In this document: positions 23,732 to 50,931 of the stretch, piece after piece
Layout of the letters: the number at the start of each line of letters is the position of its first letter
Position numbering within the stretch: the first letter of the stretch is position 1
From: Thermoplasmata archaeon
Lineage (GTDB): Archaea; Thermoplasmatota; Thermoplasmata; Halarchaeoplasmatales; Halarchaeoplasmataceae
Assembly: GCA_003554965.1 (NCBI GenBank)
Contig: PWHR01000046.1
Coordinates: 56,149-120,148 of the forward strand
Direction: 5' to 3'
DNA length: 64,000 nucleotides
Position numbers and translations under genes: made by a program
Notes under the pieces: generated by a model
Seen by the model: only the letters and a program-made list of their open reading frames with translations
The model's database searches: none
Told to the model about the DNA's origin: nothing

Positions 23732-23778
23732 AACAAGAAAAAGAAAGGGGTTTTTGATTTTGTGTTTGGTTAGCTATT
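23732..23778 (-). terminator. Conserved 3' element / oligo-U terminator downstream of giant gene 1
   Basis: In mRNA sense this reads AAUAGCUAACCAAACACAAAAUCAAAAACCCCUUUCUUUUUCUUGUU. It is nearly identical to the block after giant gene 2 and similar to the one after gene 3. Confidence 0.45.
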
Positions 23779-26700
23779 TTACTCTTCGAAGGATTCGGTT
23801 TCTCTAGTCTCTTCTTTCACTGGTTCATTTCCGCCTTTTTTCATCATCACCGCGAAGACTGCTATTATCACTGCAAGTATCGCTAAGACCATTCCGACTA
23901 TTCCTAGGTTTCTAGCCATATCTACATCGTCTTCAAGGTCTGAAATGTCGTCTTCGATATCTGCTATGTTTCCTTCGATGTCTTCTATTTCCGCTTCAAT
24001 GTCTTCAATGTCTCCTTCGATGTCTTCTATTTCCGCTTCAATGTCTTCTATGTTTCCTTCAATACCGTCTATGTCTCCCTCAATGTCGTCTATGTTTCCT
24101 TCAATGTCATCTATGTTTCCTTCAATGTCATCTATGTTTCCTTCAATGTGGTTTATGTCTCCTTCAATGTCGTCTATCTGGGCTTGGAGATCTGACTCAA
24201 CGTCATCTAATTCATCGTCTAAATCGTCTATCTGATTTTGAAGTTCTGTCTCAATGTCATCTAATTCATCAAACAAATCGTCTATCTGGGTTTGTAGACC
24301 TGTCTCAACGTCATTTAAGTCATCTCTCAAGTCATCTAGTTCATCATTCAATTCCTCTAGCTCAGGTAGATACAGTGCATAAACCGTAGCTTCTGCGACA
24401 ATCTCCTCATCATCCATAGCCTGAACTGTGAATACATTTTGTCCTTCTATGAGGTCAGTCTCGTATACGAATTCTCCGTTATCATCAACAGATACAGATG
24501 CATCGTTAACGTACACATCTAGATTTGGATCGGTCTCACCATGGATTGTGAACTCTTCATCATAGGTTAGACTTTCCACACCGTCTTCTGGACTAAATAT
24601 CTCTAGTTTTTCCTCTATAGTGGATACCTCAAAGACCCTAGTCTCAGTATATCTGTTCCCAGCTCCATCAGTAGCTCTGACCTGTACAACGTGAGTACCA
24701 TCCTCTAATCCAATAAAGGTGTAGTCTGTATCAGTTCCGATATCGTCCCAATCACCGTAGTTTATCCGTATCTCGTAATCGATGTCTCCTAGATATTCGT
24801 GTCCTTCCCATTCTACAGTCACCGTATCCTGCTCTATTATCACATAGTCCTCTTCTGGAGAGGTTATGTCAAAGGCTTCAACAGGTGGATTCACTATGAC
24901 TGATATCTTATCTGTATCAGTGTTACCCTCTTCATCGCTAACCTCGAGATATACATCGTAGGTTCCTTGGTATGGGAAGACGTAATCGACGATCTCTCCT
25001 TCAGTTGTATCATAGTATCCTTCCGCTTCACCAGAAATTCCTTCAATCGACCAGCTCCAATCTTCTACTCCGACATTATCCGTGGAACCAGATCCGTCTA
25101 GCTCATATTCGACTCCTACTCTTGTTTGATCAGATGTGCCTGCATCTGCTACCGGATCTTCAGTATCTATGGCATAGATTTCATCCCATGCTTCGGCGGA
25201 ATTACCATAAGCGTCAGTTACTGTTAGAGTTATGTCATAATAGAGAGCGTACTCCAAAGGCTTCTCTATCACTGGTTCGTAGAAATAGTATGTCTCGTCG
25301 TATGGATCGACGATCTCCCATGTGTAGTTTTCGATTCCTGCGTTATCGGATGGTGGGTTATACGATTCTGTTGCATTCAGTGTTATGGTGTCGCCCTGGT
25401 AGTAATCTGGTTCCTCTTCGATGTGGAATTCGGCATGCGGTTCCACATCATCTTCTAGATGGAATGACCAACCGTATCCTTCTGGTACTGCAGCTGGGTC
25501 ACTAGTATACTCTACTGCATTAGCGAACATCTGGTTCGCTTCTTCGGACCAACCCGGATCGTCGGCTTCTCCAAAGAATCCTATTCCCTTAGCTGGGAGC
25601 AGGACTTCATTCCTATCTTCACAGACGCCTACCGCTGGTCCTCCATATCCTCCACCGTAATCTTTCTCAGCGAGTATTTCTCCACTGTATTCATCGAACC
25701 ATGAACCCCAGTTAGTGGTTCCGTCGAACATCAACACTTCATCTCCTTCTTCTCCAATATCTTCGAATATCGGATGATCTTCGAGTATCTCTAGATATTG
25801 TGGTGGGTTCGTACCAGTTCCTTCAGAATCATGGTATCCAGGATCATCTCTTACGTTGTGTAGCTGAGTAACTCCGTCAGAATAACCTTCTTGACTAGCG
25901 CCAACATGTGTATCTAGATAGACAACTCCTTGTCCGTCTTGTAGATTGTCTAGGAAGTCTTCAGCAGCCGCTTCAGAGTCTGCCTCTGTATACTCATACC
26001 TCTGTATAACAAATGTATCATAATTGTCTATCTCATCTATAAGCCAATCGTCCCAGTGTTCGTTATCTTCGTTCCACAATGTTTCAACGTTGTATTCGTC
26101 GTCTGGTAAGTAGTCTTCCAGTTTATACTCGATCTCATATTCTTGCCAGTTGTCCGCATCGACTACTGCAACGTCAACTTCGTCGCCCATCAATTCTTCG
26201 TCAGTCGGCTCTTCATCGATCTCGTCACCAGTTACTGGGACTTCAACATAGGCTTCAAGACCCCAAGCACCAAGACCTGACTCCTCCCAGTTCGCTGGGT
26301 CATGAGGATCTTCCCAAGTGATCCATTGTCCTTCGTCGGGATAAGAAGTATCATCTATTCCAAATGGGAAATGACCATCGCCGGGATCATCTATGTGCAT
26401 TACTATCCAATACTCATCTTCCTCTATCATGACATCTTCGTCAAGTTCGAGTTCGACCCAACCTGCTCCTTCTGGGTTATATTCCTCTGTCTCTGTGAGC
26501 CATTCTCCTGGTGCTCCTCCATCATCTTCTGCTATGTAACCATAAGCCCAGTCGCCAAATTCACCAGTGTCATCGTCATAGTCATAATAAGCGACTTCTG
26601 AGATGTATCCTCCTATATCGTCTGATAGGTCCAATCTCATGGCACCGTACCAGTCAATTGGATCTGGTCCTACACCTCCGGCATTATCAGCTTCAAATCG

Positions 26701-29700
26701 ATGGTCTGCTTCGTATAACCAGCGCCATTCTCCTTCTAATTCACCAACATGTTCAAAGTTAGCTGTTATCTCTTTATCCGAATCCATAGTGACAGTTATC
26801 TCTTCTTCAGTACCTTCATAATCACCAGTCCATTCGGTAAATTGCCATTCAGCGTCCTCAGGTATCGCTTCAAGATCCACATCAGTACCTTCAATGTAGT
26901 TGTCCTCTTCTGGATCGATCTCAACTGTTCCTTGGCCAGCAACATCGACATCTAAAGTATACATACCTGGGTTTATACTACCCATGTTGTAATCTTCGTA
27001 TGTTACCATCACGTACCAGTGATTATCGTTAGCCATCCTTTCTTCTTCTAGTTCCCAAGTCGTCTCTAACCTCTGATCTTCAATGATCTCGAATGAATCG
27101 ATCAGTTGATCCCAGTTTCCGTCGTAGAATTCGACTTCAATATATTGGTCGGTCGGATTGGTCACATCAACAGATAGATCTTGTTCAAGACCTGTTACCC
27201 ATTCGTCATGTTCTGGTTCTGGTTCTGTAGCTTCAGGCAGTGGTAATTCATAGACCGAATCTTCATTCATCTCTCTATTACCTACTCTGTCAACTGCTCT
27301 CACAACATAATGCCACTGTTCTCCGTCATCCGCCATTCCTTCATCTACATAACTGTACTCTTCTGATCCATCGGCCTCGACTTCGGCTATAGGTTCGTCC
27401 CATGGACCGTCCTGGTCTTCAGCTCTGTAGACTTCATAATATTCAGTGTCATCGTAACCTGCACCATCATCTGGTGACGCATCCCAAGTCAACTCGTTTC
27501 CTGTAACTGCCCATGGATCTGCATCCCAATCCAGTTCTAAGTTTTCAACTTGTTCTGGAGGATCTGCGTTTATGTCTGCAGTATCATGAACGTATCTTCC
27601 TTCTGGTTCGTAGGTATGGAATTCCCATGTATCAGACTCGATGGTTGTGACTCCGTCGTAAACTTCTACATGCCATTCGAAGGTTGAATTCGTTTCTAAT
27701 AAAACAAACTGTGTAGCTGCTTCTTCTCCAGACATTACTTCTTCAACAGTTTCATTACCGATCTCATAGCCGTCTTCATCGTACAGGTAGAATGTTACAT
27801 CCATGTGGTAATCATTTGGATCGTTGACTGTCACATTCATCAGTGGGGAATGAGTCACATCTTCTTCACCATCATACGGGCTTGGATCAGATACTTCAGG
27901 ATCTTCATGTTCATCCACGAAGACTCGTTCACTAACCTCTACGTTCTCTAGATTATCATCTTCAGGATGATCAGTTACCATCGTTAGAATGTAATCGCTC
28001 GGTTCTTCAGTTTCGGGAGTCCAGTCATCGAACTGGACCTGTTCGTCCTGACCAACACTCAAGTTTTCCACTTCTTGTTCGTCGTAGTATTCTTCTTCGG
28101 TATATTCCGTGGTTATAGTTACATCATCGATTCCCCAGTACTCATCTTCTTCGACTTCTTCTGAATAAATCTCCCAACCTATCCAGACTTCGTCTTCTTC
28201 AGAAGCCCATTGAGTTATATCGTATTCTTGTTCGCCGTGAGTTATGTTCCTGCCTATCCTTTTATAGCTATCGCCTTCATCGGTCGAGATCAAGAGTGAT
28301 CTTTCGTTTTCGTCGTAATTTCCTTCAAATTCAGAGAAGAATTCCAGGATGACTCTGTGTTCACCGTCACTACAATCAGCCATCTCAGACCACAGTATAT
28401 CGTGTTCGTGGTCGTCTATCGGAGTTATCTCGACCTTCTCTTCCTCTTCGTTATATTCCCAAGTATTATCGTTTCCATCCCTATCTTCGGCTTCCCAACC
28501 ATTATCAAATGGATCATCTGAGAAGTCCTCATCAAGCGGGATGTCGTCAATTATCTGTTCGATGCTCATTTCGACAGGTCCTTCATCAATATCCTGGTTA
28601 CCGACGTTGGTGACTGTTCCAGTAACGTTTCTCTCCTGGAAGTCAAATATCGGTTCTTCTGGTTCATCTATGGAAGTAGCTTCAAGATCATAGACGATCG
28701 GGATCACTTCAGTGAACTGCTCTAGGGTGGCTGAATCAGGATCAGTTTCATCTTCATGTTTAGCTGTAATATTGAATACATATTCACCTGCATCGGAAGG
28801 TGTCCAATCCTCGAACTCTGCATTGATCGTCTCGTCTTCATCTATAGTGACCTCTATCTCGTCAGAATAATCTTCTTCTCTTTCGCCCAATATAACGTCG
28901 TTGACGAACCAGTCATCCAGTTCGATCGTCGAGCCATGATATTCAAAGATCACCTGGGTTTCAGGACCTATATGGTCTGTTAGATTAACCTCATAATGAT
29001 CGGGCGCAATGCTTCCATCAACTGGATTCTCCCACGGGGTCACATCCTGCCATGACTCATCAGGATCGGACCTAGCCTGCACTATCGCATCGAATTGGTC
29101 TGTGCTATGATCGATGTAAGAGAAGAATTCCAAAGTTAACTCATCAGCTTCGGTTGTGTCCACAGCAGGACTCTGTAGATACGAGTAATCATCGTCTCCA
29201 ACATCAAACCAATAGAGATTAGCCTCTGGTGGATTACCTCCTGCTTCGTTGGAATCAGACTGAGTCCAGTCATCTGTTTCCCAACCTTCAGGTGGGAAAC
29301 TACCAGAGAAATCTTCAACGAATCCTTCGACATGTTCAGCTTTAGCTTCAACCGGTACATCTTCAACCATGAAGTCGCCATAGTTAGTTATCTCGGCTTC
29401 AACGTCCTGGGTTTCTTCCCAGACTTCTGTTTCTGGAGAGATTATCTCATCTACACCTAGATTCGCTTCGGGTGCTCTGACCAATATTGTTTCCCTCACG
29501 TAATCGAGTTCATCATCTAATTCTGTGCTGACGTTTATCTCGTACTCACCGACTTCTTCTGGATCCCACTCTTCAAATTCGACCTCTTTTGTCTCCTGAG
29601 CATCTATGTCTATTGTTGTAGCGTCGTCATATTCGTCATCTAAGCTTGTAACCATTACTTCGTATATCTCCCAGCTATCAGGTGTAAATGGATCTCCTCC

Positions 29701-32700
29701 GTGGTCGTCAGTTTCGTAGAGGAATCCTATCTGAACGTTCTCTTCACCGTCTGCATATTCTGATATGTCATAATAGATTTCGCCAAAATCATCATCCGTA
29801 AAGTTGTCGATCTCTTCCCATGTATCTCCACCATCTGTCGTAATCGAGATTTCCCCGTAGGGGTCACCTTCAATTCCATCGTCGAAATCGTGATCGACAA
29901 CGAGTTCAGTTCCTTCTGCCTCGGAAGCATCGATTTCTGGTGAGATCAACCATTCTTCTTGGACTTCTCCGTCATCATCCTCTACCCTTGCCATGCCTTC
30001 GTCGTCAAAGTAATGCTCCCAAGTTTCATCGCTCGTATCATCTATCTCCCATTCATCAGGGATTTCATCATGGAAGTCTTCATCTAGCCAGTAAAGTACT
30101 TGTTCCATCTCTACATCTACAGGAACTTCCTCTTCGTCGAATGTTCCGTAGTTTTCTATTGCGGTTGTAACGTCATGAACCTCATCGATCATCACAGTAT
30201 CGCTCGGGGAAATAATCTCTGAAACTTCTACACCGTGGACATCTTCGACTATTATATCCTGCGTGGTTCCGAAACCTACTATTTCATCATCTAAGTCTTC
30301 CGTCGTGGACTCCATCAAATATTCTCCTTTTTCATCTGGGTTCCAGTCTTCGAAAACCGCAGTAGTTTCTTCACCGGCATCTACGTCTACTTCGATTTCA
30401 TCTTGATATACATCTTGAACATATTCTACAGTGACCTCTTCGATACTCCAATCACAGAATGTTGAATGATCGTCGTCGTCGCTGCTGTGCCATACAAAAG
30501 CAACATGAACTTCTTCTTCACCATCTGCGTAGTCTGATATATCATACTCATACTCACCGTCAGGATCATCGTCTCCATCCCATTCTTCTATAAGATCCCA
30601 TTCATCGCCACCGTCCGAACTGACCTGGACTTCGGCAGTGTATTCTGGATCGCCAAAGCTGGGGCTTAGATCATGATCGAATATCAGCGTAGTATGGGAA
30701 CCATCGCTTACATCGATCTCCGGACTTATCAACCACTCTTCCTGGATTTCGTCACGGGTAACATCGATATCTGCCGAACTCGTTCCATGATGCCAAGTTT
30801 CATCGCTCGTATCATCTATCTCCCAATCGTCAGGTATCTCATCATCGAAATCCTCGTGTAGTGCGGTAACAAATTCATTTATCGTAGTCTCTACGGGTAC
30901 GTCTTCGTGATCAGCATCTCCTAAATTTTCAACTAGTGTTTCAATAGCATGATCTTCTTCAGTATTCACTCTTTCAGGAGGTTCTAGTATTTCGCTCACT
31001 CCGACTACATCGTCAGGCATCTCTGTAAAGTATTCTACTGAATTTGCCAATAGGGTCCAAGCTTCGTCCGTCCAATCTGGATCGTCTGGTGGGGCAAAGT
31101 AATCTATACCCACTGCTGGGAGTAGGATCTCATTTCCATCTTCATCGATCCCTACACCTTGTCCTTCGTAGGTAGTATCGTCATTATGGTATATGACTTC
31201 AGCTAGATCGTCTCCGCTGTAATCTTCGTAATAAGAACCGTAGATGTTACTTCCGACGTACATGTCAACAACATCGTCTTCTTCACCTACTCCATCAAAT
31301 ATTTCATGATCTTCTTGTATATCAATCTGGACAGGCGGCCTTGTATCGAGACCTTCGGCCCAATGTTCTTCAGGGTCATCGCGCACATTATGGAGTCTTG
31401 TTACACCATCTGGATAGCCTTCGTCAGTAGCACCCTCGTCAGAGTCTAGATATATCGCTGCTTGATCATCTTCTAGTTCATCCAAGAAGTCTTCAGCTAG
31501 TGAATCGCTGCCGAACCTCCACGGTACGAACGCATCGTAGTTCTCCATCTCATCTATTAGTTCATCGGCCTCTAACGTATCAACGACATATGGTCCTACC
31601 AAGCGTTGTTCTAATTGGTAAGCGATCTCGCCTTCAAAATAGTCTATTTCATCGATCACAGCTATTTTCGGAATCTCTTCATGCGGCGTCTCTGTAAGCA
31701 AATCCTCGTTTTCACTATCCATGCCTTCTTCAAGATCATCAGGATGTCCTGGATCCGCATCCCAGTACTCTGCTTCTATCTCGCCAGCATGGTCGACTTG
31801 AAGAGTTCCTTCTTCATCTTCTTCACTTAATTGCACTTGACCCTCGAAAAATCCTAAGTTCTCTTCATCTTCTTCCAATTCTAACGTTTTAACCTCGATC
31901 TCTTCTCCATCTTCATCGTAACTTGTCACATTAACCTCGTGAGTTCCCTCTCCTTCAAGTATTATGTCGTTCAAAGTAACATTGACAAGATCTTCACCGG
32001 CATACTCGTCCTTCTCGATCTCAATCTCACCTTCTTTGTCAGGTACTTCTATATCAACAATGTCGTCAGGAACGTTCGAGGCACTCAAAGCATAATCCTG
32101 GTTCGCCTCTCCATCGTTGTTAGCGTCTTCAGGAACATTAGTTCCGTGAACTCTAACGGTATAAGAACCGCTCTCTAGTTCGTCAGGATGAATGAAAACG
32201 TTCTGAACGTTGTTCACATCATCCCAACCGTCTCCATCATAATCGAAATCATCCATGACATCTGTATTCGGATAACTGTAACCGCTATCACTAGTACCGT
32301 CACCAGTTTCATCGAAAGCATTACCTCTGTATATGTCGCCACCAGGAGATTCCACTTCAAGATCCAAATTGTTCTTCAGTGTTGGTGTCCCACCTGCACT
32401 ATCGCCTTCTTGAGCGTTTTTATCTGTATAAGAAAGCGTTACCTTCAATGGTTCATCCTCATCTGCAGGATTAAACTCGTATTCTTCAACTTCTCCTGTT
32501 TCTATCAAAGTCTCCTGATCTTCCAGTTGGAATCCCATCGGTTCTTCTTTTGGATATTCTAATTTTGATAGATTCGGAACGCCCCAACCTTCATCTCTGT
32601 TTGGCACGTGCCCATCTGAAGGTATATTTCCTCCAGTATTACCTACTTCAGGGTCTAGTTCCTCTGCAGTATTAACGAGGATAGATCTGACCATGGCGGG

Positions 32701-40900: not shown

Positions 40901-42807
40901 GAAAGGCTAGTTCCGGACCAAAGTGTCCAGGAATTGTTGCCTTGGAAATCTCCGATATTTTCAAGCTGTTGATTGAGTGGATCTCCACCGTATCCGAACT
41001 GCCCATTGGTCATTATGTCCGGACCGTGTGAACCTTTAGAATGCGGACCTGTACTTGTCATGCCAGTAACATCACCATACCATGGATTTGGACCGCCATC
41101 GTCCATTCTCCACGGATCGACTCTATACATCTGATTTCCGGTCGCGCCGACAGAAAGTACGCCTTGAGCACCTGAAGGCGCGCTAACAGTTCCGAATCCA
41201 CTACCTGAATTACCCTGAGAGTTTATGAACAGTGTGTTTTCAGTGTATTGAGTACCGACATAGTCGAACAACCTTTCGTAGAAGTTGAAGCCACCGTGAT
41301 TCTCATCGATGGTCCGTCCGAAGCTGCTGGAAGCGATATCAGCGGAATCGCAGGTTATCTCTACATCACCTGTGTAGCCTTCAGCAGTGAAGAACAGAGA
41401 CGAATATGTTGTAGGTACTGCGTACTGATCTATACTCAATGGATTTTCGGGTGGCAGATAATCAAAGAACCTGCCCATCGGGATTATGGTCGCGTTCGGA
41501 GCCATACCTCTCGGAAGGCCTTCTCCTGGTTCACCTGGTGGATATGGACTTTCTCCAGGCACTAAAATATCTTCTTCAGGAACGCCCGTAACGGCTTGAC
41601 CAGCTACGGCTGATGCGGTCCAAGTTCCGTGAGCACCCATAGAGCCGAACTCGTTGAAGTCGCCCATGAGAGCCACCATGTCGCCGTCTTCGGGTGTGGT
41701 GTAGAAATCTTCACCTACTACAGCTTCCCATGCATCTTCTACATCAGGATCCATTTCTCCAATAGTTCCTGGCGGATATCCCATGTAGAGATTGATGATC
41801 TTGTTCATCGTATCTCTGAAGTGATCCATGTAGGGTATAGCTCTCTCGCCGTCAGACACGAAGTAAACCATACCACCTGAGATGTCAGCGATGTCGTCTC
41901 CAGTCACATCTTTGGTGATCATTTCGGATTCCGGATCTTCTCCGTCTATCCATGCTCCAGTTTCCTCAACGAATTCTTTATCATTCTCAAGGTCCACATA
42001 TACATTCGTCCAATCGCCATCATCGTTCTGTGTCAAAAGGACTGCTGGTCTCTCTTCGTACCATATGTGAAGTTTCTCGTCGGGATGATCACCGAATCTT
42101 ACTTCTTCCTCGGCTTCAGCGACCTCAGTGACGTTGTAAGTTTCGTCTCCGTAATCGGCCCATATATATCCCTCATACTCATAGGTCTCCGTCTCGTAGC
42201 TAGTATCAACATACCAGCTGTTATCTTCAAAATCAGGCATGACTTCGTAATCTTGACTTATCTCCCCATCGAATGCATAGTCAGCCATAGAGACCGGATC
42301 AAAGGCTATCGGATGACCGTCATAGGCTTCATACTCATCAGGCATCGTATCCTCGTCATACTCGAATACAGCGTGGGTCCCGATCAGATCAGGGTGCGCC
42401 ATGTCGAATCCGGTATCCATGAGAGATACAGTTACGTTTTCTCCCGTTATGCCCATGTCATGGACCGGCTCAACTTGATGCTGGTCTATGGTGTGGGGAT
42501 CGGTTAACAAGTCCTCCGATGAGGATAATCCTTCTCTAGATACTTCAGAGCCCGATAATATCTCTGTCAGTTCAGGGTCTAGAACGTCCGGTCTATCCAC
42601 TGGGTCAGTAGGATCTCTCTCCTCAATATTCTCTAGAACTTCTTCCAAAAGCGCTGGATCACTTTCCGTTTCCTCTTCTGAGAGTGCGGTTTCTGTATCC
42701 TGCGCGTGAACTCCAGTTACTCCCGCCGTTAGAACGGAAAAAATCAACAGTGCCGCTATAACAGTAGAAATCACTATACTTCTTTTTCTATTCTTTTTAA
42801 CATTCAT
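37948..42807 (-). CDS. Giant secreted/membrane-anchored protein with subtilisin-like S8 peptidase domain (paralog family, SPEARE-like)
   Basis: 1619 aa. Strong RBS GGAGGAG. Signal peptide present. S8 triad reads SLMDTGFD / HGTWTASAVAG / GTSLSAPNAAGIAAL with a large insert. Acidic beta-sandwich domains follow. C-terminal coiled coil built from perfect repeats, then MARNLGIVG + TM + acidic tail ending FEE. Confidence 0.85.
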   Translation of the reverse strand: MNVKKNRKRSIVISTVIAALLIFSVLTAGVTGVHAQDTETALSEEETESDPALLEEVLENIEERDPTDPVDRPDVLDPELTEILSGSEVSREGLSSSEDLLTDPHTIDQHQVEPVHDMGITGENVTVSLMDTGFDMAHPDLIGTHAVFEYDEDTMPDEYEAYDGHPIAFDPVSMADYAFDGEISQDYEVMPDFEDNSWYVDTSYETETYEYEGYIWADYGDETYNVTEVAEAEEEVRFGDHPDEKLHIWYEERPAVLLTQNDDGDWTNVYVDLENDKEFVEETGAWIDGEDPESEMITKDVTGDDIADISGGMVYFVSDGERAIPYMDHFRDTMNKIINLYMGYPPGTIGEMDPDVEDAWEAVVGEDFYTTPEDGDMVALMGDFNEFGSMGAHGTWTASAVAGQAVTGVPEEDILVPGESPYPPGEPGEGLPRGMAPNATIIPMGRFFDYLPPENPLSIDQYAVPTTYSSLFFTAEGYTGDVEITCDSADIASSSFGRTIDENHGGFNFYERLFDYVGTQYTENTLFINSQGNSGSGFGTVSAPSGAQGVLSVGATGNQMYRVDPWRMDDGGPNPWYGDVTGMTSTGPHSKGSHGPDIMTNGQFGYGGDPLNQQLENIGDFQGNNSWTLWSGTSLSAPNAAGIAALVYEAYEDAHGEAPTAETLKNIVMQGADDINNTPNLQGPGDANAYDSVQIAQGGLYSEEFQWRPGTNPEMGEHVEHHVNMMEPGEEVTDEMTLHNWHDEDIDYEMTPYRMEQEDNASVELNSGTGPIEPQVMINETGVYELEYDEDNENWNISDLLVELDDPEEADLLRFGTHTPLEEQDQWDYAIAQIYNWEDVNDNSSYDGWEERNRIGYTFATLAAVGEELTSDYFTIHDALERAEDGIILQIDNLLATEENPIPESFNFTLNIEMYNQVEWDWIEIDEPEGSIPVEDSLEYNITAEVPEEAPKGIYSGKMMLEDTTNDRTMQIPITITVGEHTDLAEPMHFGAGDGDAEEDFGIYRNDRLYGSWEGGLNGDWRFYTFHLTEDIVDSDVKLELEWDDPMSDMTAFLLGGAEHDLLELGEPYEEDPFSIVTNDWDMIDRYGVNTLETIDYTDLGSEGYVALERDMLESGTYMIALQSHQISGHEPYQEFSAELSTSIVSTEPSTIISEEKASLNGELLSMPENVTEVDVFFRFRFPGDEWNETEEQVMEDVGEFEETLEGLETGATYEFKAVTQWEDHEETGVVLTFEPQEVPVEMILDPEEGDVVQGDSLVISGEIAEEHPVENLYSAHLSLDGWWEDGYIDIGEPEVEFELPVVLAEQSHTYHMEVEDEEGNTNEFEVTFEVDNTVPMLNIDLQNDVETDEAIIYGETEEGVTVWINDEPVELDEEFGFEETVTLEEGDNYIEIVAEDEAGNEVVKELTASYIPEIDDLRGDIEDLYTQIDDLWNELDALEDDLQGQIDDLWDELDALEDDLQGQVDDLWDELDALEDDLQGQVDDLWDELDALEGDIEDIKDDIAGLEDDIAGLEDDIAGLEDDIAGLEDDIAGLEDDIADIENDIAGLEDDIADIEDDISDLEDDVDMARNLGIVGMILAILAVIIAIFTVVMKKQDKSEPEEEEMFEEKDETVTFEE
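38144..38301 (-). repeat. Perfect 21-nt tandem repeat (about 7.5 copies) encoding DDIAGLE heptads
   Basis: gtcatcctctagtccagctat is repeated head-to-tail. Confidence 0.9.
38326..38541 (-). repeat. Perfect 54-nt tandem repeat (4 copies) encoding DDLWDELDALEDDLQGQV
   Basis: tcgagagcatctagctcgtcccacaagtcatctacctggccttgtagatcgtct is repeated 4 times, with only synonymous or conservative changes. Confidence 0.9.
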
Positions 42808-43059: not shown

Positions 43060-46000
43060 TTACTCCTCGAAAAAATCAGTCTCTTCAGATTCCCCTACCA
43101 TCTCTTCTTCTACTGGTTCACTTCCGCCTTTCTTCTGCATCACTGCGAAGACCGCTATTATCACCGCTAGTATCGCCAGAACTATACCGACTATTCCCAG
43201 GTTTCTAGCCATGTCGATGTCGTCCTCCTGATCTTCTTCTACGTCTTCCTGGTCTTCCTTGAACTCTTCTAAGTCATTCCTTAACTCATCGATGTCATCT
43301 TCGAGCGCCGTTATATCGTCCTCTATATCAGCTATGTCATCTTCGATCTCTGCTATGTCGGCCTCTATGTCATCTATGTCTACTTCAAGTTCGTCTATTT
43401 GACTTTGTAGATCTTCTTCTACCTCTTCAAGATCATCACTTAGTTCGTCTATCCATCCATCGAGATCATCTATTTGACCTTGGAGATCTTCTTCTAAATA
43501 ATCAAGATCATCTCTCAGATCGCCTATGTCTTCTTCAATAGCATCTATATCTGTCTCAATGGTCTCAATTGAATTCCAAATCTCAGGTATCTCGGGCAAG
43601 TATAGTGCAGACACTGTAGTTTGCCTATGATTTCCTGCTCCATCCTCTGCAATCACTTCGATCACGTTTTGTCCTTCAACAAGCATCAATGTATATGAGA
43701 AATCTCCTTCCTCGTCGACATCGACCATTTCACCGTCAATCCATAGTTCAGCTTCAGGATGTGTCGTTCCTTCGATCATCAGTTCTTCTTCGTAAGTTAG
43801 CTCTTCAATTCCATCTTCTGGAGAGGTGAATTCGATGTCTGGCGGTGTAGTATCTATGGTGAGGTCCACCATCTCTACATGTTCGTTACCTGCATAATCT
43901 GTTGCCCTTACATAGGCGGTATTCTCACCGTCGGGGACACCATTGAACGTATGGGTTTGAGGTTCTACCTCTTCGTCTTCAGTATGGGCAGCAACGACTC
44001 TATCGTCTTCAGCACCGCTGTAAACCACTCCTTCAGAGGCATGGATGTCTCTCACGAAGTGTTCGTGATGCTCGTGAGACCACAACATTTCACCATCTTC
44101 TGCATCGGCGGCTAGCACTCTCTCATCATCTCCACCGCTGAAAACCATACCCTCACATTCAGAAAGGGCATAGATTATAGCGTCTTCGTGATGTGTGTGA
44201 CTCCAGTCTTCTTCACCGTCTTCAACGGATGCCGCTACAACTTCACCGTCATTGCCAGCGCTGTAAACCAGCTCTTCAGAAGCATGGACCGCATATATCG
44301 GACCGACATGATGCTCGTGCTCCCAGATCATATCTCCATCCTCAGCATCAGCCGCGATCACGGTATTTCCTTGGCCTACTGAACCGCTGTAAACGACTCC
44401 ATCGTGAGCATCAACATCGAACACAGCTTCTCCATGGTGGTCGTGTCTCCAGATTTCTTCACCGTCATCTAAATCAGCTGCTATGACATTTCCACCAAGG
44501 CCTCCGCTTACTATCATATCATCGACTACTGTCAAAGAGTAAACTCCCATATCGTGATGGTCATGTGTCCATAATTCTTCGCCTGTATCAGCATCTGCTG
44601 CTATAACCGAACCATCAAAACAACCACTGTAGACGACTCCATCATGTTCCACTATTCCATATACAGCGTTTGTGTGCTCATAATGGCTCCAAAGAACTTC
44701 TCCTGTTGCTGTGTCATAAGCGATCACTTCACCAGGTTCACCTAATCCTATATCTGCACCGCTGTATATCACTCCATCCGACTCGTAAACTGCTTCTACT
44801 TTTCCATCGTGTTCACTATGTTCCCATATCATTTCACCGGCCTGAGCAGGTGGTTCCGGAGCATCATAGTCTATCCATCCAGTGTCTTCTAAACGCACCT
44901 CTATCTTCTCAGCTTCACCTAGTACGTTCCAAGCAACTTCAACACTGTCTTCAGCGATCTCTTCTCCTTCAGCTGGGCTCACTATATCTAACTCAGGAGC
45001 AATAGTATCCACTGTAAACATAGCTTCCTCGGTTCCTTGATTACCTGCTTCGTCTGTCGCCCTTACCTGAACAGAATGTTCACCATCTGGGAGGTCAGTC
45101 AATTCATACCATGTTCTATGACCAACTTGTATCCAGTCATCCTCAATCGGTGACCATACCTCATAGTATTCTATCGAGGTCGTTTCCTCGTAACCTATCC
45201 ATTGCACTGTAACCTCGCCTTCGTCGAAGTATTCTCCATCTTCAGGATTTGCTATTAATATCTCAGGAGGAACGGTATCAACTATGAATGTGACTGAGTC
45301 TATAGCCTCATTACCTGCATTATCAACTGCCTTGACCTCCACTGTATGTTCGCCTTCACCTAATTCTTCAAATTCAAAGCTGGTATCATCTCCAACGTCC
45401 ATCCATTCCTGTTCTTCTAGACACCAGACTTCGAAATGAGATAGTCCTGAGTACTCGTCTTCACCAAACCATTCAACTGTCACATTTGAAGTATCTAACA
45501 CTGCATCCTCCTCAGGATAGGTTATCTCTATCGTTGGAGGTTCTTCATCTTCGATGATCTCAAAAGTTTCACTGGTATCTTCATCATAGTAACTTATTAC
45601 ATCCACGACTTCAGCCCTTATCATAGCCTCATCTGTAGGATGATCAGGAACTTTCCATGTATATTCACCCGTATCCTCAAGACCTTCCGCTATAGTATTC
45701 CAGCTGTCACCACCGTCAACGCTGTATTCAAGGTTTACATAGTCGATGTCTTCATCTCCTTCAATAGTGTTCCAATCAAGGTCCTGTTCTGAATAATGGA
45801 ACCATTCTTCCCCTCCTTCAGGAGTGGTAATTTCTATCTCAGGAGATTCAACATCTGGATCACCAGGTTCATATTTCGAATTCTCGTTGTCCTCTTCCTG
45901 TCCATAATTATCAACAGCTCTTACCAAGTACCAATAGAACGGTTCACCTGCAGCATCCTCGTCGATATACTCGTATTCCGTTACATCTTCGTCTGCCTCT

Positions 46001-49000
46001 ACAGTAGCTATCGGATCATCCCAAGGACCACCTTCATCTTCAGATCTGTATACATTGTATTCGTCTATCCTGTATTCATCGGGGCTCTCTACCCATGTTA
46101 TCTTGTTGTGATCTTCTTCGTGCTCATGTACACGTACTCTTTGTGGAGGCTCTACCATAGGTGGTAAAGGTTCTTGGGCCGCATCTTCGTTCTGCTCTTC
46201 CATCTCATTCAATGCTACCGCTCGGACCACATACCACAAGCGAGTGTCGTTTTGAGCGGGACCCATATCAGGATCTAGGTACCAATAATCTTCTGAGCCA
46301 TCCGCTGGAACAGTATCTATGAGTGCTTCTTCATCCCATGGACCTGTTTCCTCGTCAGCTCTGTATATGTTGTAATGTGTTACTTGTTCAGGAGCGTCCG
46401 CAGGATCATCAGGGCTCGCATCCCACGATAGTACATTGTGATCTAAACCATCCTCGTCCACCTGTTCAACATTGACCTCTAACGCCCAGCTATCATCGAA
46501 TCCTAGTCCTATCAACTCGTCCCAGGTCTCACCGTCCATGCTTATATATCCTGCATCCTCGAGATAACCTTCTACTGTGCCGGTAGGTTGGAATCCATCA
46601 CCGATATCTTCGACCTCTAGAACTACCCAATAATAGCCAGAATCTATACTGACGGGTTCCATGAGAGGTATTTCGTTCCATTCTTGTTCATCGAACTCAG
46701 TCATGGTTTCAGTTTGACCGAGCATCTCACCCGGAGAGTCACCTGTATCTTCATGTATCGTACCTGTGATCGACTCCGCATCATCCCATTGGTAATACGC
46801 TATATCCTCAACTTGTCCTCTAGGCAATTCTATCCTCATCGCAGTCCAGTATTCCCCAGGTCCGGTCAAACCGATAGCATTATCGGCCTCAGGCCTATGG
46901 TCATCATCGTACATCCAGTGCCATTCTTCCTCTAAACTACCGTGTTCTACTTCCAGGTTCTCCGGCTGTTGAGGAGGCTGCCCTACTATCTCGAACTCTT
47001 CGCTCGTGTTTTCATGGAATCTACCATATTCGTCTACAACTCTCGCCTGTATCATAGCTTCATCACTGGGCCAATTCGCTACTTCCCACTCATATTCGCC
47101 GTCATCTTCAAGTATGTTGTCGATCTCGGTCCAAGTTTCTCCTCCATCTGTACTGTAACTCAAATGATCGATGTAATCTATCTCTACTGGTTCATCGTTC
47201 TCTTCGGCTTCTTCTGTTGTCCACATTATGTCCTCCAGATCATAAGCGTCCCAAACTGAGTCAGCATCAGGTTGATCTATGGTGATCTCAGGAGTCTCAA
47301 CATCTGGATCACCGGGCTCCTGCTTCGCTTCTTCGTTCTCCTCTTCTAATTCATTGATCCCAACAGACCTTACCACATACCAGTAGTATGGCTCTTCTGC
47401 AGCATCTAGATCGATGTATTCGTACTTTTCAGAACCGTCAGCTTCTACACTGCCTATAGGTTCGTCCCATGGACCTTCCATATCTTCGGCTCTGTAAACA
47501 TTATAATGACTGACCTCGCCTACATCTTCGCTGGGGCTAGCATACCATCTAAGTTGATTGTTCACGGGTTCATCCCGCTCTATCTCAACTGTCATCTCGA
47601 TGTCATCGATGCGCCAGCCTCCGTCCCATTCGTCCCAGTCATGGGTAGAAGCTATCCAAGCTATATTAACCGTTTCTCCGGCGTATTCATCTAGATCGAC
47701 TGTCACTTCTTCCCAGTCTTCAGATCCCCACCAAGCCGGGAGACCTTCCATTGGATTATCAAAACCTTCATTGAGTTCTCCATCGTAACCGGGTTCTGGA
47801 TCATCGATGAGTCCAAATTCCTCTCCATCGGTAGAGATCAACAAAGTGCCTCCATCCCATTCTGGCTCCATATCTCGCCAGTGCTGGAATGAGAATTCCG
47901 CACTCTCGGCTTCAGTCAAGTCGATCGTCGGAGAGACCAACCAACTATCATCACCGACCTGTTCGTAAGTCTCGTTTCCCCAGTCCCAGGACTGTTCACC
48001 TACTGCAGCACCGTGATCTCTTATATCCCATTCGTTCACTTCATCCATGGTCATGTATCCTTTATCTTCGGAAACGTTGTCTTCAAATATCGTATCGAAC
48101 TCAGTATAATGATCTTCAACTAACAGGCTCTCCGGAGGCTCAGGCGGCACTCCTTCGATAGTAAATTCATCTGAAACAGCTTCTCCGTAACCTCCTTCTT
48201 CGTCTATCACTCTGATACGTATCTGAGCTTCGTCGACTTCAGGTTCTGTAGGATTTATAACGTCCCAGGTGTAGGTACCCTCATCTTCTTCTAATGTAGC
48301 TATGTTATTCCATATCTGACCTCCGTCCGTGGTATACCATAGGACCGCTTTATCTATATCATAATCACCTGGAGTGGAATCCCAAATGATATCCTCTTCT
48401 GTATGACCGACCCACACAGTATCTTCTTCGGGTTCTTCTACCTCTACCGTAGGTGGATCATGTATCATCTCTGCTTCTTCAGCATTGTGAACTGCTAAAG
48501 CATAATCTTGACTTGTCTCTCCTATATTTACTGCATCTGCTACGATGTTCGCCCCGGTCACTCTGACAGAGTAATTTCCAGCAACTAAATCCTCAGGCGG
48601 GATATACACGTTCTGTACATTGTTGGTGTCGTCCCAACCGTCGCCCTTTCTATCGAAAACTTCCATAGTGTCCTCATTCGGCTGAGTCCAACCTTCTTCG
48701 AACGCGTTTCCTTGATAGACTTCTCCTTCCGGTGATACGACCTCTAGATTCAGATCGTTCATCAGAGTAGGATCGTCGAAAGCGTCAGGTGGAGCTGCCT
48801 CATCGGCCCACCCAAGAGTTACCTTCATCGGCTCTTCAGGATCTTCATGTTCCACTGTATATTCGTGATATTCCCCACTGTCGGTCAGTTCTTCTTCCTG
48901 ATCCACTGTGTAGAAGGGGAGTTGATCCTCTTTTGGATATTCGAGCTTGGAGATGTCTACCATACCCCAACCTTCGTCTCTATTAGGGATCGGGCCTTCA

Positions 49001-50931
49001 GTATTGCCTATCTCTTCAGACAATGGTTCTGCGGTATTGATCAAAAGAGACCTTACCATCGCGGGACTCGGTCTATAACCGTGATTCTCTTCATACCATT
49101 CAACTATCACGGAGGCTGCACCGGCCGCTACTGGATTAGAAGATGAAGTACCACCCATCCATCTGTATTCCTCTGGGTTTGGCTCATAAGTTCCTGTGCC
49201 TTGTGGAGTTTGCGTAGAAGTTGTCAACTCAGCAGGAGCAACAACATCAGGTTTAATCCTATTGTCTGCTGTCCATCCTCTAGAACTGTAACCAACGATA
49301 TCTTCTGGATTATCGGAATTCACTCCTCCATAATCTCCTCCATCAGGAGCCCAATTGTAAGTCGCTCCGACAGTGATCACGTTCTTTGCATGACCCGGAC
49401 TTCCGGTGGATTGGTATCCTGGACCTGCGTTACCTGCAGAACTGGTTATAACCATCGGCTCGTTTTCTTCTGTTTCCCTGTTTGCATCTCTCACCGCTGA
49501 ATCGAAAACTGAATCAGTCTCTATATATTCGCCGAATGTATCTGCGCCCCAAGAGTTAGAGTGAATGTAGGTATCGGATTCCTGAGCAGGAACTTCGAGT
49601 ATCTCAAAATAATCTTCGGGACCTACCCAAGTTGCTCCATCATCGCCAAATATCTTGGCACTGTATAGTTCAGATTCATAAGCCAATCCCTGAGAAAGGT
49701 AATAAGGTCCTGTAGTTTCTCCTGCATAGGTCTCTCCTGTTCCACCATAAGTATGTCCAGCAGCTAAGCCTGCCGCGTGTGTTCCATGATAATGGCCGTC
49801 TCCCCAATAATCTGGGTCATCCCAATTATATCCTCCTACTACTCTATCAGTGAAATCCGGATGGCCTGCATCACCTTCCTCACTATCGCCTATTCCAGTG
49901 TCAGCGATCGTTATGGTCACGTCTTCTCCTGAGTAGCCGATCTGATTTATGTATGCTCCGTAATCTCCATGTTTTCTATAGGGCTCTTGTGGATTCCATT
50001 CATCTTCATCATCCATGAACCAGAGACCTCCGCCGGTCAACTGTGATTCCATCTCGTGTAGTTCCGGTTCTTCGTGCTCACTTATATAATAGACTTCATC
50101 GATCATAGCTATTTCATAAAGGTCTTCTTCTTCGTCTATCTCCATCCGTACTCTATGTTCTCCGTCAGGAAGTTCTACGTGGGAAATCACAGGTTTTTCG
50201 ATCTCCTCGTTTCCAACTGCGAGTTCCAACTCATTCTCTCTCCGGTCGGTTTCTACAGCCGCTTTTTCAGTTATCTGGTTTATCGTTTCGAAGTCAGCGT
50301 TTGGCGTAAGTCCAACTTCTATAGCACCAGACTCAAGTCCTGGTTGTATCTTGAACTCCGGTTGATATATGCCGACCCAATCGACGAATTCCAAGTTCTC
50401 GACTCTTTCAGCCTGTTCTGGAGTCATCAGCACTCTGTATCCGTAGTTGTGGACGTAGTTCATCACTTCTACGCTTTTTTCTTCAAGAGTCTCCACCCAA
50501 TCGGAACTTATGGGACCTATCATGTCGACCAGATATATCCCTTCTGTTCCCTGTTCGTAAGATTCAATAGTGTATTCCTCGTTCAATTCAGGGAGACCTT
50601 CATTAGTATCGAACTCGTAACCGTTCACGATCAATTCGTTTCTATGGTTCAAAGTCCTCACTTCATACTGACTTTCTATTGTCTCTAATCCTCTCTCCGA
50701 AGTCTCCAATATAACGTTCCTTCCGTAATGGTCGATGATTTCACCATGTTCACTAAGATAATCTAAATCTCCTGATCCATCAGCGTAAACCAAAATAACT
50801 TCATCCATTTTCTCTAAGTTTTCATCAGATTCGGCACCACCTAGAACCATCATCCCAGGTATCACGGTGCCTACCACTAGTACAAAGGCTATCACTAAAA
50901 CGGATATTCTCTTTCTAATTTTACTATTCAT
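43060..50931 (-). CDS. Giant secreted/membrane-anchored protein with S8 peptidase domain, fn3 repeats and an 8-bladed PQQ-like beta-propeller (paralog family, SPEARE-like)
   Basis: 2623 aa. RBS GAGGT. The N-terminal ~330 aa are homologous to giant protein 1. S8 triad reads IADTGIGD / HGTHAAGLAAG / GTSSSNPVAAGAASVIVEW. Repeated fn3-like modules (YNVYRAED..GPWDEPI) are present. Eight ~40-aa repeats follow the pattern VYSG..DG.V.A.DA..GE..W.H.HH. C-terminal coiled coil + MARNLGIVG + TM + acidic tail ending FFEE. Confidence 0.85.
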   Translation of the reverse strand: MNSKIRKRISVLVIAFVLVVGTVIPGMMVLGGAESDENLEKMDEVILVYADGSGDLDYLSEHGEIIDHYGRNVILETSERGLETIESQYEVRTLNHRNELIVNGYEFDTNEGLPELNEEYTIESYEQGTEGIYLVDMIGPISSDWVETLEEKSVEVMNYVHNYGYRVLMTPEQAERVENLEFVDWVGIYQPEFKIQPGLESGAIEVGLTPNADFETINQITEKAAVETDRRENELELAVGNEEIEKPVISHVELPDGEHRVRMEIDEEEDLYEIAMIDEVYYISEHEEPELHEMESQLTGGGLWFMDDEDEWNPQEPYRKHGDYGAYINQIGYSGEDVTITIADTGIGDSEEGDAGHPDFTDRVVGGYNWDDPDYWGDGHYHGTHAAGLAAGHTYGGTGETYAGETTGPYYLSQGLAYESELYSAKIFGDDGATWVGPEDYFEILEVPAQESDTYIHSNSWGADTFGEYIETDSVFDSAVRDANRETEENEPMVITSSAGNAGPGYQSTGSPGHAKNVITVGATYNWAPDGGDYGGVNSDNPEDIVGYSSRGWTADNRIKPDVVAPAELTTSTQTPQGTGTYEPNPEEYRWMGGTSSSNPVAAGAASVIVEWYEENHGYRPSPAMVRSLLINTAEPLSEEIGNTEGPIPNRDEGWGMVDISKLEYPKEDQLPFYTVDQEEELTDSGEYHEYTVEHEDPEEPMKVTLGWADEAAPPDAFDDPTLMNDLNLEVVSPEGEVYQGNAFEEGWTQPNEDTMEVFDRKGDGWDDTNNVQNVYIPPEDLVAGNYSVRVTGANIVADAVNIGETSQDYALAVHNAEEAEMIHDPPTVEVEEPEEDTVWVGHTEEDIIWDSTPGDYDIDKAVLWYTTDGGQIWNNIATLEEDEGTYTWDVINPTEPEVDEAQIRIRVIDEEGGYGEAVSDEFTIEGVPPEPPESLLVEDHYTEFDTIFEDNVSEDKGYMTMDEVNEWDIRDHGAAVGEQSWDWGNETYEQVGDDSWLVSPTIDLTEAESAEFSFQHWRDMEPEWDGGTLLISTDGEEFGLIDDPEPGYDGELNEGFDNPMEGLPAWWGSEDWEEVTVDLDEYAGETVNIAWIASTHDWDEWDGGWRIDDIEMTVEIERDEPVNNQLRWYASPSEDVGEVSHYNVYRAEDMEGPWDEPIGSVEADGSEKYEYIDLDAAEEPYYWYVVRSVGINELEEENEEAKQEPGDPDVETPEITIDQPDADSVWDAYDLEDIMWTTEEAEENDEPVEIDYIDHLSYSTDGGETWTEIDNILEDDGEYEWEVANWPSDEAMIQARVVDEYGRFHENTSEEFEIVGQPPQQPENLEVEHGSLEEEWHWMYDDDHRPEADNAIGLTGPGEYWTAMRIELPRGQVEDIAYYQWDDAESITGTIHEDTGDSPGEMLGQTETMTEFDEQEWNEIPLMEPVSIDSGYYWVVLEVEDIGDGFQPTGTVEGYLEDAGYISMDGETWDELIGLGFDDSWALEVNVEQVDEDGLDHNVLSWDASPDDPADAPEQVTHYNIYRADEETGPWDEEALIDTVPADGSEDYWYLDPDMGPAQNDTRLWYVVRAVALNEMEEQNEDAAQEPLPPMVEPPQRVRVHEHEEDHNKITWVESPDEYRIDEYNVYRSEDEGGPWDDPIATVEADEDVTEYEYIDEDAAGEPFYWYLVRAVDNYGQEEDNENSKYEPGDPDVESPEIEITTPEGGEEWFHYSEQDLDWNTIEGDEDIDYVNLEYSVDGGDSWNTIAEGLEDTGEYTWKVPDHPTDEAMIRAEVVDVISYYDEDTSETFEIIEDEEPPTIEITYPEEDAVLDTSNVTVEWFGEDEYSGLSHFEVWCLEEQEWMDVGDDTSFEFEELGEGEHTVEVKAVDNAGNEAIDSVTFIVDTVPPEILIANPEDGEYFDEGEVTVQWIGYEETTSIEYYEVWSPIEDDWIQVGHRTWYELTDLPDGEHSVQVRATDEAGNQGTEEAMFTVDTIAPELDIVSPAEGEEIAEDSVEVAWNVLGEAEKIEVRLEDTGWIDYDAPEPPAQAGEMIWEHSEHDGKVEAVYESDGVIYSGADIGLGEPGEVIAYDTATGEVLWSHYEHTNAVYGIVEHDGVVYSGCFDGSVIAADADTGEELWTHDHHDMGVYSLTVVDDMIVSGGLGGNVIAADLDDGEEIWRHDHHGEAVFDVDAHDGVVYSGSVGQGNTVIAADAEDGDMIWEHEHHVGPIYAVHASEELVYSAGNDGEVVAASVEDGEEDWSHTHHEDAIIYALSECEGMVFSGGDDERVLAADAEDGEMLWSHEHHEHFVRDIHASEGVVYSGAEDDRVVAAHTEDEEVEPQTHTFNGVPDGENTAYVRATDYAGNEHVEMVDLTIDTTPPDIEFTSPEDGIEELTYEEELMIEGTTHPEAELWIDGEMVDVDEEGDFSYTLMLVEGQNVIEVIAEDGAGNHRQTTVSALYLPEIPEIWNSIETIETDIDAIEEDIGDLRDDLDYLEEDLQGQIDDLDGWIDELSDDLEEVEEDLQSQIDELEVDIDDIEADIAEIEDDIADIEDDITALEDDIDELRNDLEEFKEDQEDVEEDQEDDIDMARNLGIVGIVLAILAVIIAVFAVMQKKGGSEPVEEEMVGESEETDFFEE

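Follow-up and report, generated by a model that had tools for sequence, protein, structure and literature searches.

Three giant surface proteins, termed here P1, P2 and P3, are encoded on the minus strand of a 64,000-nucleotide stretch of contig PWHR01000046.1 (assembly GCA_003554965.1), which stems from a Thermoplasmata archaeon of the Halarchaeoplasmatales; the whole of this stretch is referred to as the window. With moderate confidence, P1–P3 are interpreted as regulated cell-envelope proteinases that are mounted on stalks and capture and digest proteins. That the three are active surface-anchored subtilases appears highly probable from their sequences. Together they represent an undescribed architectural variant of surface-anchored subtilases, accompanied by a conserved STAND-type (signal transduction ATPase with numerous domains) regulator and a conserved candidate operator, and are not a categorically new kind of protein. 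A literature search found no paper that describes the P1–P3 protease family, and public annotation of its members goes no further than 'S8 family serine peptidase' or 'InlB B-repeat-containing protein'.

P1 is encoded at 23779..34560 (−) and measures 3593 aa when read from the GTG at 34560, or 3585 aa from the ATG at 34536. The latter is the JGI start and aligns with the N-terminus of P3 (MEGKARRGISVLV vs MNSKIRKRISVLV). P2 (37948..42807, −) has 1619 aa and P3 (43060..50931, −) has 2623 aa. The 1032-aa STAND-type regulator gene is located between P1 and P2 at 34743..37841 (+), and an oligo-T tract is found between P3 and P2. The original prediction, made from the nucleotide sequence alone, listed three giant minus-strand open reading frames of 3585, 1619 and 2623 aa, and its coordinates proved correct.

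All three proteins match Pfam Peptidase_S8 (PF00082) above the cut-off, with E-values of 5e-30 (P1), 2.5e-29 (P2) and 6e-37 (P3) and scores of 105, 103 and 128 bits, respectively, against a cut-off of 21.8. The catalytic triads are D352/H390/S594 in P1, D131/H393/S634 in P2 and D344/H382/S596 in P3, and the oxyanion Asn is N533 in P2 and N501 in P3. Across two family alignments, of 21 and 45 members, the triad and the oxyanion Asn show no or almost no variation. Each protein has an N-terminal hydrophobic signal and a single C-terminal transmembrane helix, and P1–P3 are therefore predicted to be almost wholly extracellular. Asp and Glu make up 25–30% of the residues, Lys and Arg 3%. The proposal that each protein combines a signal peptide and an S8 domain with an intact D/H/S triad is upheld by Pfam, motifs and alignments, and composition agrees with the long, extremely acidic beta-sandwich arrays that were described for all three.

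P1–P3 were taken to be three paralogues. This is correct for P1 and P3: P1 aa 9–830, comprising the N-region, the S8 domain and the post-S8 domain, is collinear with P3 at 50% identity, such that the common N-terminal part is ∼820 aa long and not ∼330 aa as first thought. It is not correct for P2, which has only the anchor module in common with the other two. The last ∼300 aa of P2 are 45% identical to those of P1/P3, whereas the S8 domains are ∼25% identical, which is generic similarity. As judged by sequence, P2 is a member of a different S8 family.

At the level of sequence and structural model, P1 and P3 are KP-43-type members of peptidase family S8. The P3 S8 domain (aa 335–656) and the beta domain C-terminal to it (aa 660–817) lie at 48481..49929 (−) and are defined by phmmer, Foldseek and the invariant triad. 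A phmmer search of PDB sequences aligns P3 aa 329–797 to KP-43 (1WMD) and SubHal (5FAX; both S8A) with E ∼1e-42 and with the triads in register, and the alignment extends through the beta-barrel domain to KP-43 residue 422, i.e. the catalytic and beta-barrel domains align end to end. The AlphaFold2 (AF2) model of P3 1–817 has a pLDDT of 77 and a Foldseek TM-score of 0.84 to SubHal/KP-43. Absence of an S8 fold or of the triad would have spoken against a protease; the fold is found in the P3 model and the triads are present. The Peptidase_S8 domain of P1 (aa 343–644; 32629..33534, −) is recognized by Pfam, by its triad motifs and by 50% identity to the modelled P3. KP-43 itself is a ∼430-aa secreted Bacillus enzyme, whereas here the same unit is embedded in membrane-anchored proteins of 2600–3600 aa that have 25–30% acidic residues and, in place of the usual single propeptide, three tandem propeptide-like modules.

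These three modules form the N-region of P3 (aa 44–93, 131–188 and 202–284; 50080..50802, −). In the AF2 model each displays the secondary structure order beta-alpha-beta-beta-alpha-beta, as in the fold of the subtilisin I9 propeptide, and the extended Foldseek matches of P3 1–817 include pro-subtilisin and ProN-Tk-SP structures. A slice of the homologous P1 N-region gave no match in Pfam. In a scan of 1.84 billion representatives the N-region was found in 1091 clusters (87 at E ≤ 1e-30). It is situated at or near the N-terminus in 149 of the best 150 matches listed, in proteins of up to 3753 aa. The three I9-propeptide-like modules probably act as an intramolecular folding chaperone/inhibitor.

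Downstream of the common part, P1 and P3 have different module orders. P1 consists of the signal/transmembrane segment, the three propeptide-like modules, the KP-43-like S8 and beta domain, a 'domain X', four ∼258-aa repeats, an InlB B-repeat, a second 'domain X', a PKD domain, Ig-like domains, a coiled coil, the transmembrane helix and a 20-aa tail. The four tandem repeats (aa 1180–2230; 27871..31023, −) and the two copies of domain X (aa ∼959–1181, 31018..31686, −; aa ∼2791–3022, 25495..26190, −) were delimited by windowed phmmer self-comparison. Each repeat unit has a CARDB-like part and a choice-of-anchor-J/MAM-like jelly roll (NCBIfam choice_anch_J 2e-10). Domain X (∼220 aa) has no Pfam model; it is 44% identical to aa 829–1036 of an S8 peptidase from Haladaptatus cibarius, and Halovivax has it too. 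Thus, among the modules predicted for P1, MAM/choice-of-anchor-J and PKD are confirmed, CARDB is marginal (E 0.016) and fn3 has no Pfam match.

P3 has, after the 817 aa that it shares with P1, MAM-like and other beta modules, Ig-like domains, a beta-propeller and the anchor module. The propeller (aa ∼2030–2325; 43957..44844, −) is of the PQQ/BamB type, with matches to PQQ_2 (2.6e-29) and to BamB TIGR03300 (2e-43, under its curated cut-off). It has seven blades and not the eight predicted, and the fn3 slices that were said to accompany it have no Pfam match. A His-rich W-x-H-x-x-H motif (WEHSEH, WTHDHH, WEHEHH and others) recurs in every one of the seven blades and hints at metal binding, an unusual property for a propeller of this type. 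In P1–P3 as a whole, the accessory modules above threshold are choice-of-anchor-J/MAM, PKD, InlB B-repeat (Flg_new_2), Big_13/Glucodextran_B Ig-like and PQQ_2. Isolated slices of the N-region, domain X, the P2 insertion, P2 aa 1000–1310 and the fn3-like parts gave no Pfam match.

P2 begins with a signal peptide, followed by an S8 domain that is split by an insertion, ∼600 aa of beta-sandwich domains and an anchor module as in P1 and P3. Together with the insertion, the S8 catalytic domain spans aa 104–683 (40759..42498, −; D131, H393, N533, S634), and the insertion, which is beta-rich and ∼260 aa long, is placed between Asp131 and His393. Tripeptidyl peptidase II (3LXU) also has inserted domains, but homology with these is not established, and that enzyme is a cytosolic self-compartmentalizing exopeptidase. 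The best match of the P2-family profile is KP-43 (7e-31), with similarity confined to the catalytic domain. P2 orthologues of 1450–1900 aa and 44–69% identity are found in the same lineage. Relatives at 25–30% identity occur throughout the Thermoplasmata and in one Methanosarcinales metagenome-assembled genome (MAG), and many of these have Glucodextran_B, Big_13 and coiled-coil matches.

The anchor module is the part common to all three proteins, as had been predicted, and is ∼45% identical among P1, P2 and P3. It comprises, in order, one or two Ig-like domains, the motif LYLPE/YIPE, a coiled coil of 131–165 aa, the transmembrane helix, KK and an acidic tail of 20–25 aa that ends in FEE. In P1 it covers aa 3285–3593 (23782..24708, −), with an Ig-like/Glucodextran_B domain, a 155-aa coiled coil (23905..24369, −), the transmembrane helix (23842..23907, −) and a 20-aa tail. 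The P2 anchor (aa 1304–1619; 37951..38898, −) has Big_13/Glucodextran_B Ig-like domains, a 165-aa coiled coil, the transmembrane helix and a 25-aa tail; that of P3 (aa 2327–2623; 43063..43953, −) has a Glucodextran_B Ig-like domain, a 131-aa coiled coil, the transmembrane helix and a 24-aa tail.

Two periodicities are present in the predicted stalk. The N-terminal half has a period of 3.58 and 18-residue repeats, e.g. DDLQGQIDDLWDELDALE, which is found four times in P2. The C-terminal half has a period of 3.48–3.50 and canonical heptads (IEGNIDD, IAGLEDD). At 1.5 Å per residue, the computed stalk length is 19–24 nm. In GCN4 variants, Ile/Leu at both the a and d heptad positions favours trimers, and the Ile/Leu a/d heptads of the stalk suggest that it may form a trimer as well. 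The motif D-[DI]-[VI]-D-M-A-R-N-L-G-I-V-G directly precedes the transmembrane helix, and this juxtamembrane/transmembrane signature (DMARNLGIVG..LAILA) is common to both S8 families across the lineage. The 3′ ends of the P1 and P2 genes (23842..24000 vs 38020..38180) display 93% DNA identity over 133 nt, a stretch that spans the last heptads, the juxtamembrane motif and the transmembrane helix; identity is 56% just upstream. Since the two genes are otherwise ∼25% identical as proteins, gene conversion of the anchor is indicated. A further idea, docking of the FEE tails on the neighbouring tetratricopeptide repeat (TPR) array of the regulator in an EEVD-like manner, is unsupported: five related loci (L003, L006, L009, L011 and L012) have the transmembrane helix and acidic tail without an adjacent regulator, and the regulator-paired protein of locus L037 has neither helix nor tail.

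The P1/P3 family is a strongly expanded, lineage-specific one. Thirty-eight homologues were found, as well as 217 encoding loci in a scan of GTDB species genomes, almost all in haloalkaliphilic Thermoplasmata. One MAG has at least eight paralogues, and tandem pairs are frequent. Giant size is normal for the family, since 24 of 52 complete members have at least 2000 aa and P1 orthologues measure 3000–3965 aa; eight of the 52 exceed 3000 aa and the largest has 3965 aa. The C-termini fall into several classes: stalk, transmembrane helix and acidic tail; transmembrane helix with a Zn-ribbon tail; tails ending in YKL; a secreted-type domain of ∼150 aa; and, rarely, a PGF-CTERM-like end. The three-gene island of the window is not conserved. 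What is conserved is the pair of STAND gene and P1, which one related locus (L028) retains alone.

The regulator has a putative winged helix-turn-helix (wHTH) at its N-terminus (aa ∼10–95), an AAA_16 NTPase domain (aa 153–314) and a TPR array (aa ∼560–1025). Pfam gives AAA_16 at 7e-20 (72.6 bits vs a cut-off of 32.6), TPR_12 at 4e-57 and TPR_MalT at 2.5e-19. Walker A is GKAGIGKT and Walker B is IFIDD. The wHTH has weak matches under the curated cut-offs (PadR 6.6e-5 and HTH_45), and comparison of the N-terminus with PDB sequences showed no relatives. The assignment to the STAND type in the original prediction thus stands on AAA_16 and the TPR array, with a weaker case for the wHTH. MalT, AfsR and SusR-like STAND proteins similarly have an AAA_16 NTPase, a TPR_MalT-type sensor array and dedicated pairing with a target locus, together with a DNA-binding domain, which in the protein described here is a predicted one. 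The latter differs in being archaeal, in that its putative DNA-binding domain is a wHTH at the N-terminus and neither a C-terminal LuxR nor an N-terminal SARP domain, and in a candidate operator that abuts an archaeal transcription factor B recognition element (BRE) and TATA box. A role in defence was considered for the gene and rejected; PADLOC gave generic TPR matches and a weak SngB match, nothing more.

In at least 12 related loci, a close homologue of the regulator sits immediately upstream of a P1/P3-type giant gene and is oriented divergently from it; in the window, STAND and P1 make up this conserved pair. The 182-bp intergenic region of this pair contains a 10-bp perfect palindrome, CGACATGTCG (34600..34609), as candidate operator. 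It is the one perfect copy in the window, it is in front of P1, and it is 8 nt upstream of the TATA-like box TTTATTAA (34584..34591, minus strand) that faces P1. Palindromes that have an ACATGT core and measure 10 bp or more are present in 13 of 21 regulator-flanking regions, compared with ∼0.36 expected from a background of 0.034 per kb over 1.28 Mb, and they sit at a constant 8–9 nt from a TATA-like box. The HTH-like N-terminal segment is conserved, and the flanks of the half-sites vary from locus to locus in step with its putative recognition helix: CGACATGTCG accompanies LSRNRTSE, and ACACATGTGT accompanies SRSH(I/L)SRV. This covariation fits direct operator binding. Taken together, it seems fairly likely that the STAND protein regulates P1, be it by activation or by repression. 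Pairs of a STAND paralogue and a giant surface-protein gene recur, each time with another partner gene (L081 20041..26936; L085 17156..24872). At L081, a second STAND copy is paired with a NosD/beta-helix surface protein that carries a Glucodextran_B domain. The pairings suggest 'one sensor, one surface protein' as a general layout in the lineage.

A model of function may be formulated as follows. Each protein would be exported by its N-terminal Sec-type signal and tethered by the single C-terminal transmembrane helix. The coiled-coil stalk, by oligomerizing, would lift the ectodomain ∼19–24 nm off the membrane and display the subtilase together with a long row of modules for binding (MAM/choice-of-anchor-J, PKD, InlB B-repeat, Ig-like, propeller) whose extreme acidity is an adaptation to salt. 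These modules may hold proteinaceous particles or surfaces, which the S8 domain would cleave to oligopeptides, and the oligopeptides would be imported and then fermented. The wHTH of the STAND protein would bind CGACATGTCG abutting the BRE/TATA of P1, and its AAA_16-TPR part would sense a ligand and so control P1 transcription.

A nutritional role, i.e. a supply of oligopeptides, is proposed because genes of an Opp-type importer are found beside P2 orthologues and because the lineage has a fermentative lifestyle (PMC6146748); it is given about even weight. The importer is downstream of the P2 orthologue in two loci (L082 15253..25136; L083 15038..24923), where the order 3′ of the orthologue is a 426-aa gene with no assigned function, a 1395-aa SBP_bac_5 protein, OppB, OppC and OppD. 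The SBP_bac_5 protein is unusually large, contains an InlB B-repeat and has accessory modules in common with the S8 giants.

Several points weigh against the interpretation as regulated, stalk-mounted proteinases. The Opp linkage is seen in two of four P2 orthologue loci and is found neither in the window nor in 78 P1/P3-type loci, where apparent 'SBP' matches are accessory modules of other S8 giants. P2 and P3 of the window have no adjacent regulator of their own and no palindrome, and the covariation of helix and operator may merely reflect shared ancestry. The oligomeric state of the stalk is read from heptad composition alone. The N-region, domain X, the P2 insertion and P2 aa 690–1300 have no recognized function. 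In addition, the structural match to bacterial cell-envelope proteinases has a low global TM-score (0.2–0.25). These proteinases (lactocepin PrtP, SpyCEP and the C5a peptidase ScpA) are among the closest functional analogues, but the likeness is architectural and structural only, with identity of ∼10–18%. P1–P3 have no PA or Gram_pos_anchor match in Pfam, and in place of an LPXTG/sortase anchor in a cell wall they have a coiled-coil stalk and a transmembrane helix.

Another parallel in overall design is found in the archaeon Staphylothermus marinus, in which the subtilisin-family protease STABLE is carried by tetrabrachion, a long membrane-anchored coiled-coil stalk; both nutritional and self-processing roles have been proposed, and a 2017 review lists the complex as the only reported enzyme-bearing archaeal surface layer (S-layer) (PMC5744192). 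As in P1–P3, a surface subtilase is combined with a coiled-coil stalk, and non-heptad periodicity is present here too (18-residue, 3.58). However, the tetrabrachion protease is a separate, non-covalently bound protein and the stalk is a 70-nm tetramer, whereas here a ∼20-nm stalk and the protease are one polypeptide; the phylum is another one and no sequence homology is claimed. The protease-stalk fusion would be a covalent counterpart of the enzyme-bearing tetrabrachion-STABLE S-layer.

This raises the question of whether the giants are primarily structural, forming an envelope canopy in place of an S-layer, with the S8 domain serving mainly in self-processing or maturation, cf. STABLE. The stalk and transmembrane design does recall SlaB and tetrabrachion (PMC5744192), and there is a weak NCBIfam SlaB match. 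The anchor is conserved and homogenized by gene conversion among paralogues, as expected for co-assembly, and the many paralogues per genome would also suit a canopy. On the other hand, the catalytic residues are conserved across about 100 paralogues, and the ectodomains differ greatly and are each regulated on their own, which sets them apart from an S-layer protein that forms a lattice. The giant proteins show no enrichment of N-glycosylation sequons, and some P2 orthologues have the Opp linkage. A primarily structural role is therefore considered unlikely. An extension of the idea, which is speculative and equally doubtful, is that the stalked subtilases are the actual outer envelope of the Halarchaeoplasmatales, a tetrabrachion-like stalk and a STABLE-like protease having been fused, with stalks of mixed paralogues, whose assembly the common, gene-converted coiled-coil/transmembrane module would permit, and a bank of STAND proteins that swaps ectodomains. 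If this were so, each STAND sensor might read a different substrate cue via its TPR array, and the arrangement would follow an archaeal 'protein-utilization locus' logic, analogous to the SusR/polysaccharide utilization loci of Bacteroidetes.

A further alternative is that the giants are contact-dependent adhesins or weapons, with binding modules that fasten the cell to other microbes or to mat polymers and a protease that damages target surfaces in predation, antagonism or symbiosis. PKD, InlB B-repeat, MAM and propeller modules joined to a protease on a long stalk are in line with such a role, and the quick diversification of paralogues and their tandem arrays are typical of interaction proteins. 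Yet descriptions of the lineage portray free-living heterotrophs that ferment (PMC6146748), the Pfam matches include no toxin, pore or secretion-ATPase domain, the PADLOC matches of the regulator are to generic TPR only, and the Opp linkage speaks for nutrition. An adhesin or weapon function, which would be SPEARE-like without homology, is quite improbable.

Homology with the SPEARE proteins of nanohaloarchaea, proposed to breach host cells, was raised as one option in the original prediction and is not borne out. The resemblance is superficial: P1–P3 are giant, acidic, mostly extracytoplasmic proteins with a transmembrane helix near the C-terminus, many Ig-like/adhesion modules and a predicted protease. 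The most conserved feature of SPEARE is a large cytoplasmic type-III-restriction/VirB4-TraG-like ATPase domain (PMC6642349, PMC10266531), and a re-analysis found no serine protease in SPEARE at all (PMC10266531). P1–P3, in contrast, have a bona fide S8 domain and no cytoplasmic domain, with only 20–25 aa after the transmembrane helix. No cytoplasmic ResIII/helicase/VirB4 domain is found among the Pfam/NCBIfam matches listed (all 25 families for P1, the best 25 for P2 and P3). Laminin-G, of which SPEARE have one or more copies among their extracellular adhesion domains, is likewise absent from the Pfam matches listed (the best 25 families for P2 and P3), and MAM/choice-of-anchor-J jelly rolls are present instead. 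Three database searches and the 217 genomic loci yielded no nanohaloarchaeal relative. True SPEARE homology is thus very improbable, and a false SPEARE/nanohaloarchaeal label can be removed.

The relatives are Thermoplasmata. All named close homologues, be it of P1–P3 or of the regulator, are from Thermoplasmata/Thermoplasmatota MAGs of soda and salt lakes, among them Candidatus Saliniplasma, Natronoplasma, Halarchaeoplasma and Haladaptatiplasma; the labels Aenigmatarchaeota and Syntrophomonadaceae, which do not fit this pattern, probably go back to contigs that were binned wrongly. The contig sample, 'SL_8KL_010_SED', is soda-lake sediment. A signal recognition particle RNA of the archaeal type (Rfam RF01857, 207 bits) at 15779..16091 (+) confirms the archaeal origin, and the PriL, Nre, topoisomerase I, enolase and RnfC/RnfD genes of the window are archaeal as well. 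Next to P2 orthologues, two Thermoplasmata MAGs have the order ExoVII, AAA_18, CDP-alcohol transferase, PriL that is seen at 301..3973. Because the cytoplasmic proteins of the window are at most mildly acidic (pI 4.4–8.5, Lys and Arg 10–18%), the extreme acidity is a trait of exported proteins and not of a proteome in the nanohaloarchaeal style.

Identity with the halolysins was also considered and rejected. Halolysins and large haloarchaeal S8 peptidases are, like P1–P3, extracellular and salt-adapted, and domain X is 44% identical to the Haladaptatus/Halovivax segment. However, haloarchaeal S8 domains are not the closest relatives, and the C-termini of P1–P3 have a transmembrane helix and an acidic FEE tail in place of a PGF-CTERM motif; a PGF/PGL-type C-terminus is found in two distant family members (P0011 and L045). 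The N-termini read KARRGIS, RKRS and RKRIS, with an RR pair in P1 only and no twin-arginine consensus across the family.

Finally, internal repeats (the four 258-aa units, the two copies of domain X and the heptad arrays) might mislead assemblers, but that the giant frames are assembly chimeras or decaying pseudogenes is hardly credible, as two JGI contigs (39.7 and 14.5 kb) have exactly this DNA and a 152-kb NCBI contig has these proteins on record (both assemblies may stem from the same reads), frames of up to 10.8 kb are uninterrupted, and full-length collinear orthologues exist in other genomes, including P0099 (69% identity to P1, 100% coverage) and several of 3000–3965 aa.

The Halarchaeoplasmatales (KTK 4A) are described as fermentative heterotrophs and are among the most abundant archaea of hypersaline soda-lake sediments (PMC6146748, PMC11332174), yet they are uncultured. 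They have been described via carbohydrate, organic-acid, formate, CO and H2 metabolism, and no mention of peptidases was found in the KTK 4A literature examined (PMC6146748, PMC11332174). If P1–P3 are nutritional proteinases, surface proteases of up to 4000 aa, with at least eight copies in one genome, would point to protein degradation as a major overlooked niche. The family also supplies candidate envelope proteins of KTK 4A, and in the STAND-operator pair a predicted DNA site can be assigned to a particular archaeal STAND regulator. On the practical side, the enzymes would be KP-43-like proteases adapted to alkali and salt.

Some other genes of the window may be mentioned. Directly upstream of P3 (51237..55042, −) are RnfD and a tandem of RnfC-like genes that encode 441 and 450 aa; genes of an Rnf-type ferredoxin:NAD+ complex are consistent with a fermentative anaerobe. 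A DEAD/Helicase_C/MZB helicase (MrfA/Lhr-like; 21378..23693, +) adjoins the 3′ end of P1; it has many generic PADLOC helicase matches, with no sign in these of membership in a defence system. Two open reading frames of 480 and 412 aa (17090..18532, + and 57483..58721, +) have no Pfam or PADLOC match, and a tRNA scan of the window found none. A 1467-aa protein (9435..13838, +), which is also present in the JGI contig, has 18.5% Glu and 14% Lys, a helical-repeat-like look and a C-terminal Cys-rich Prok-RING_1 zinc finger as its one Pfam match. A link between this protein and the S8 giants is conceivable, as some S8 members at related loci have Zn-ribbon cytoplasmic tails (CPxCG...CWACG).

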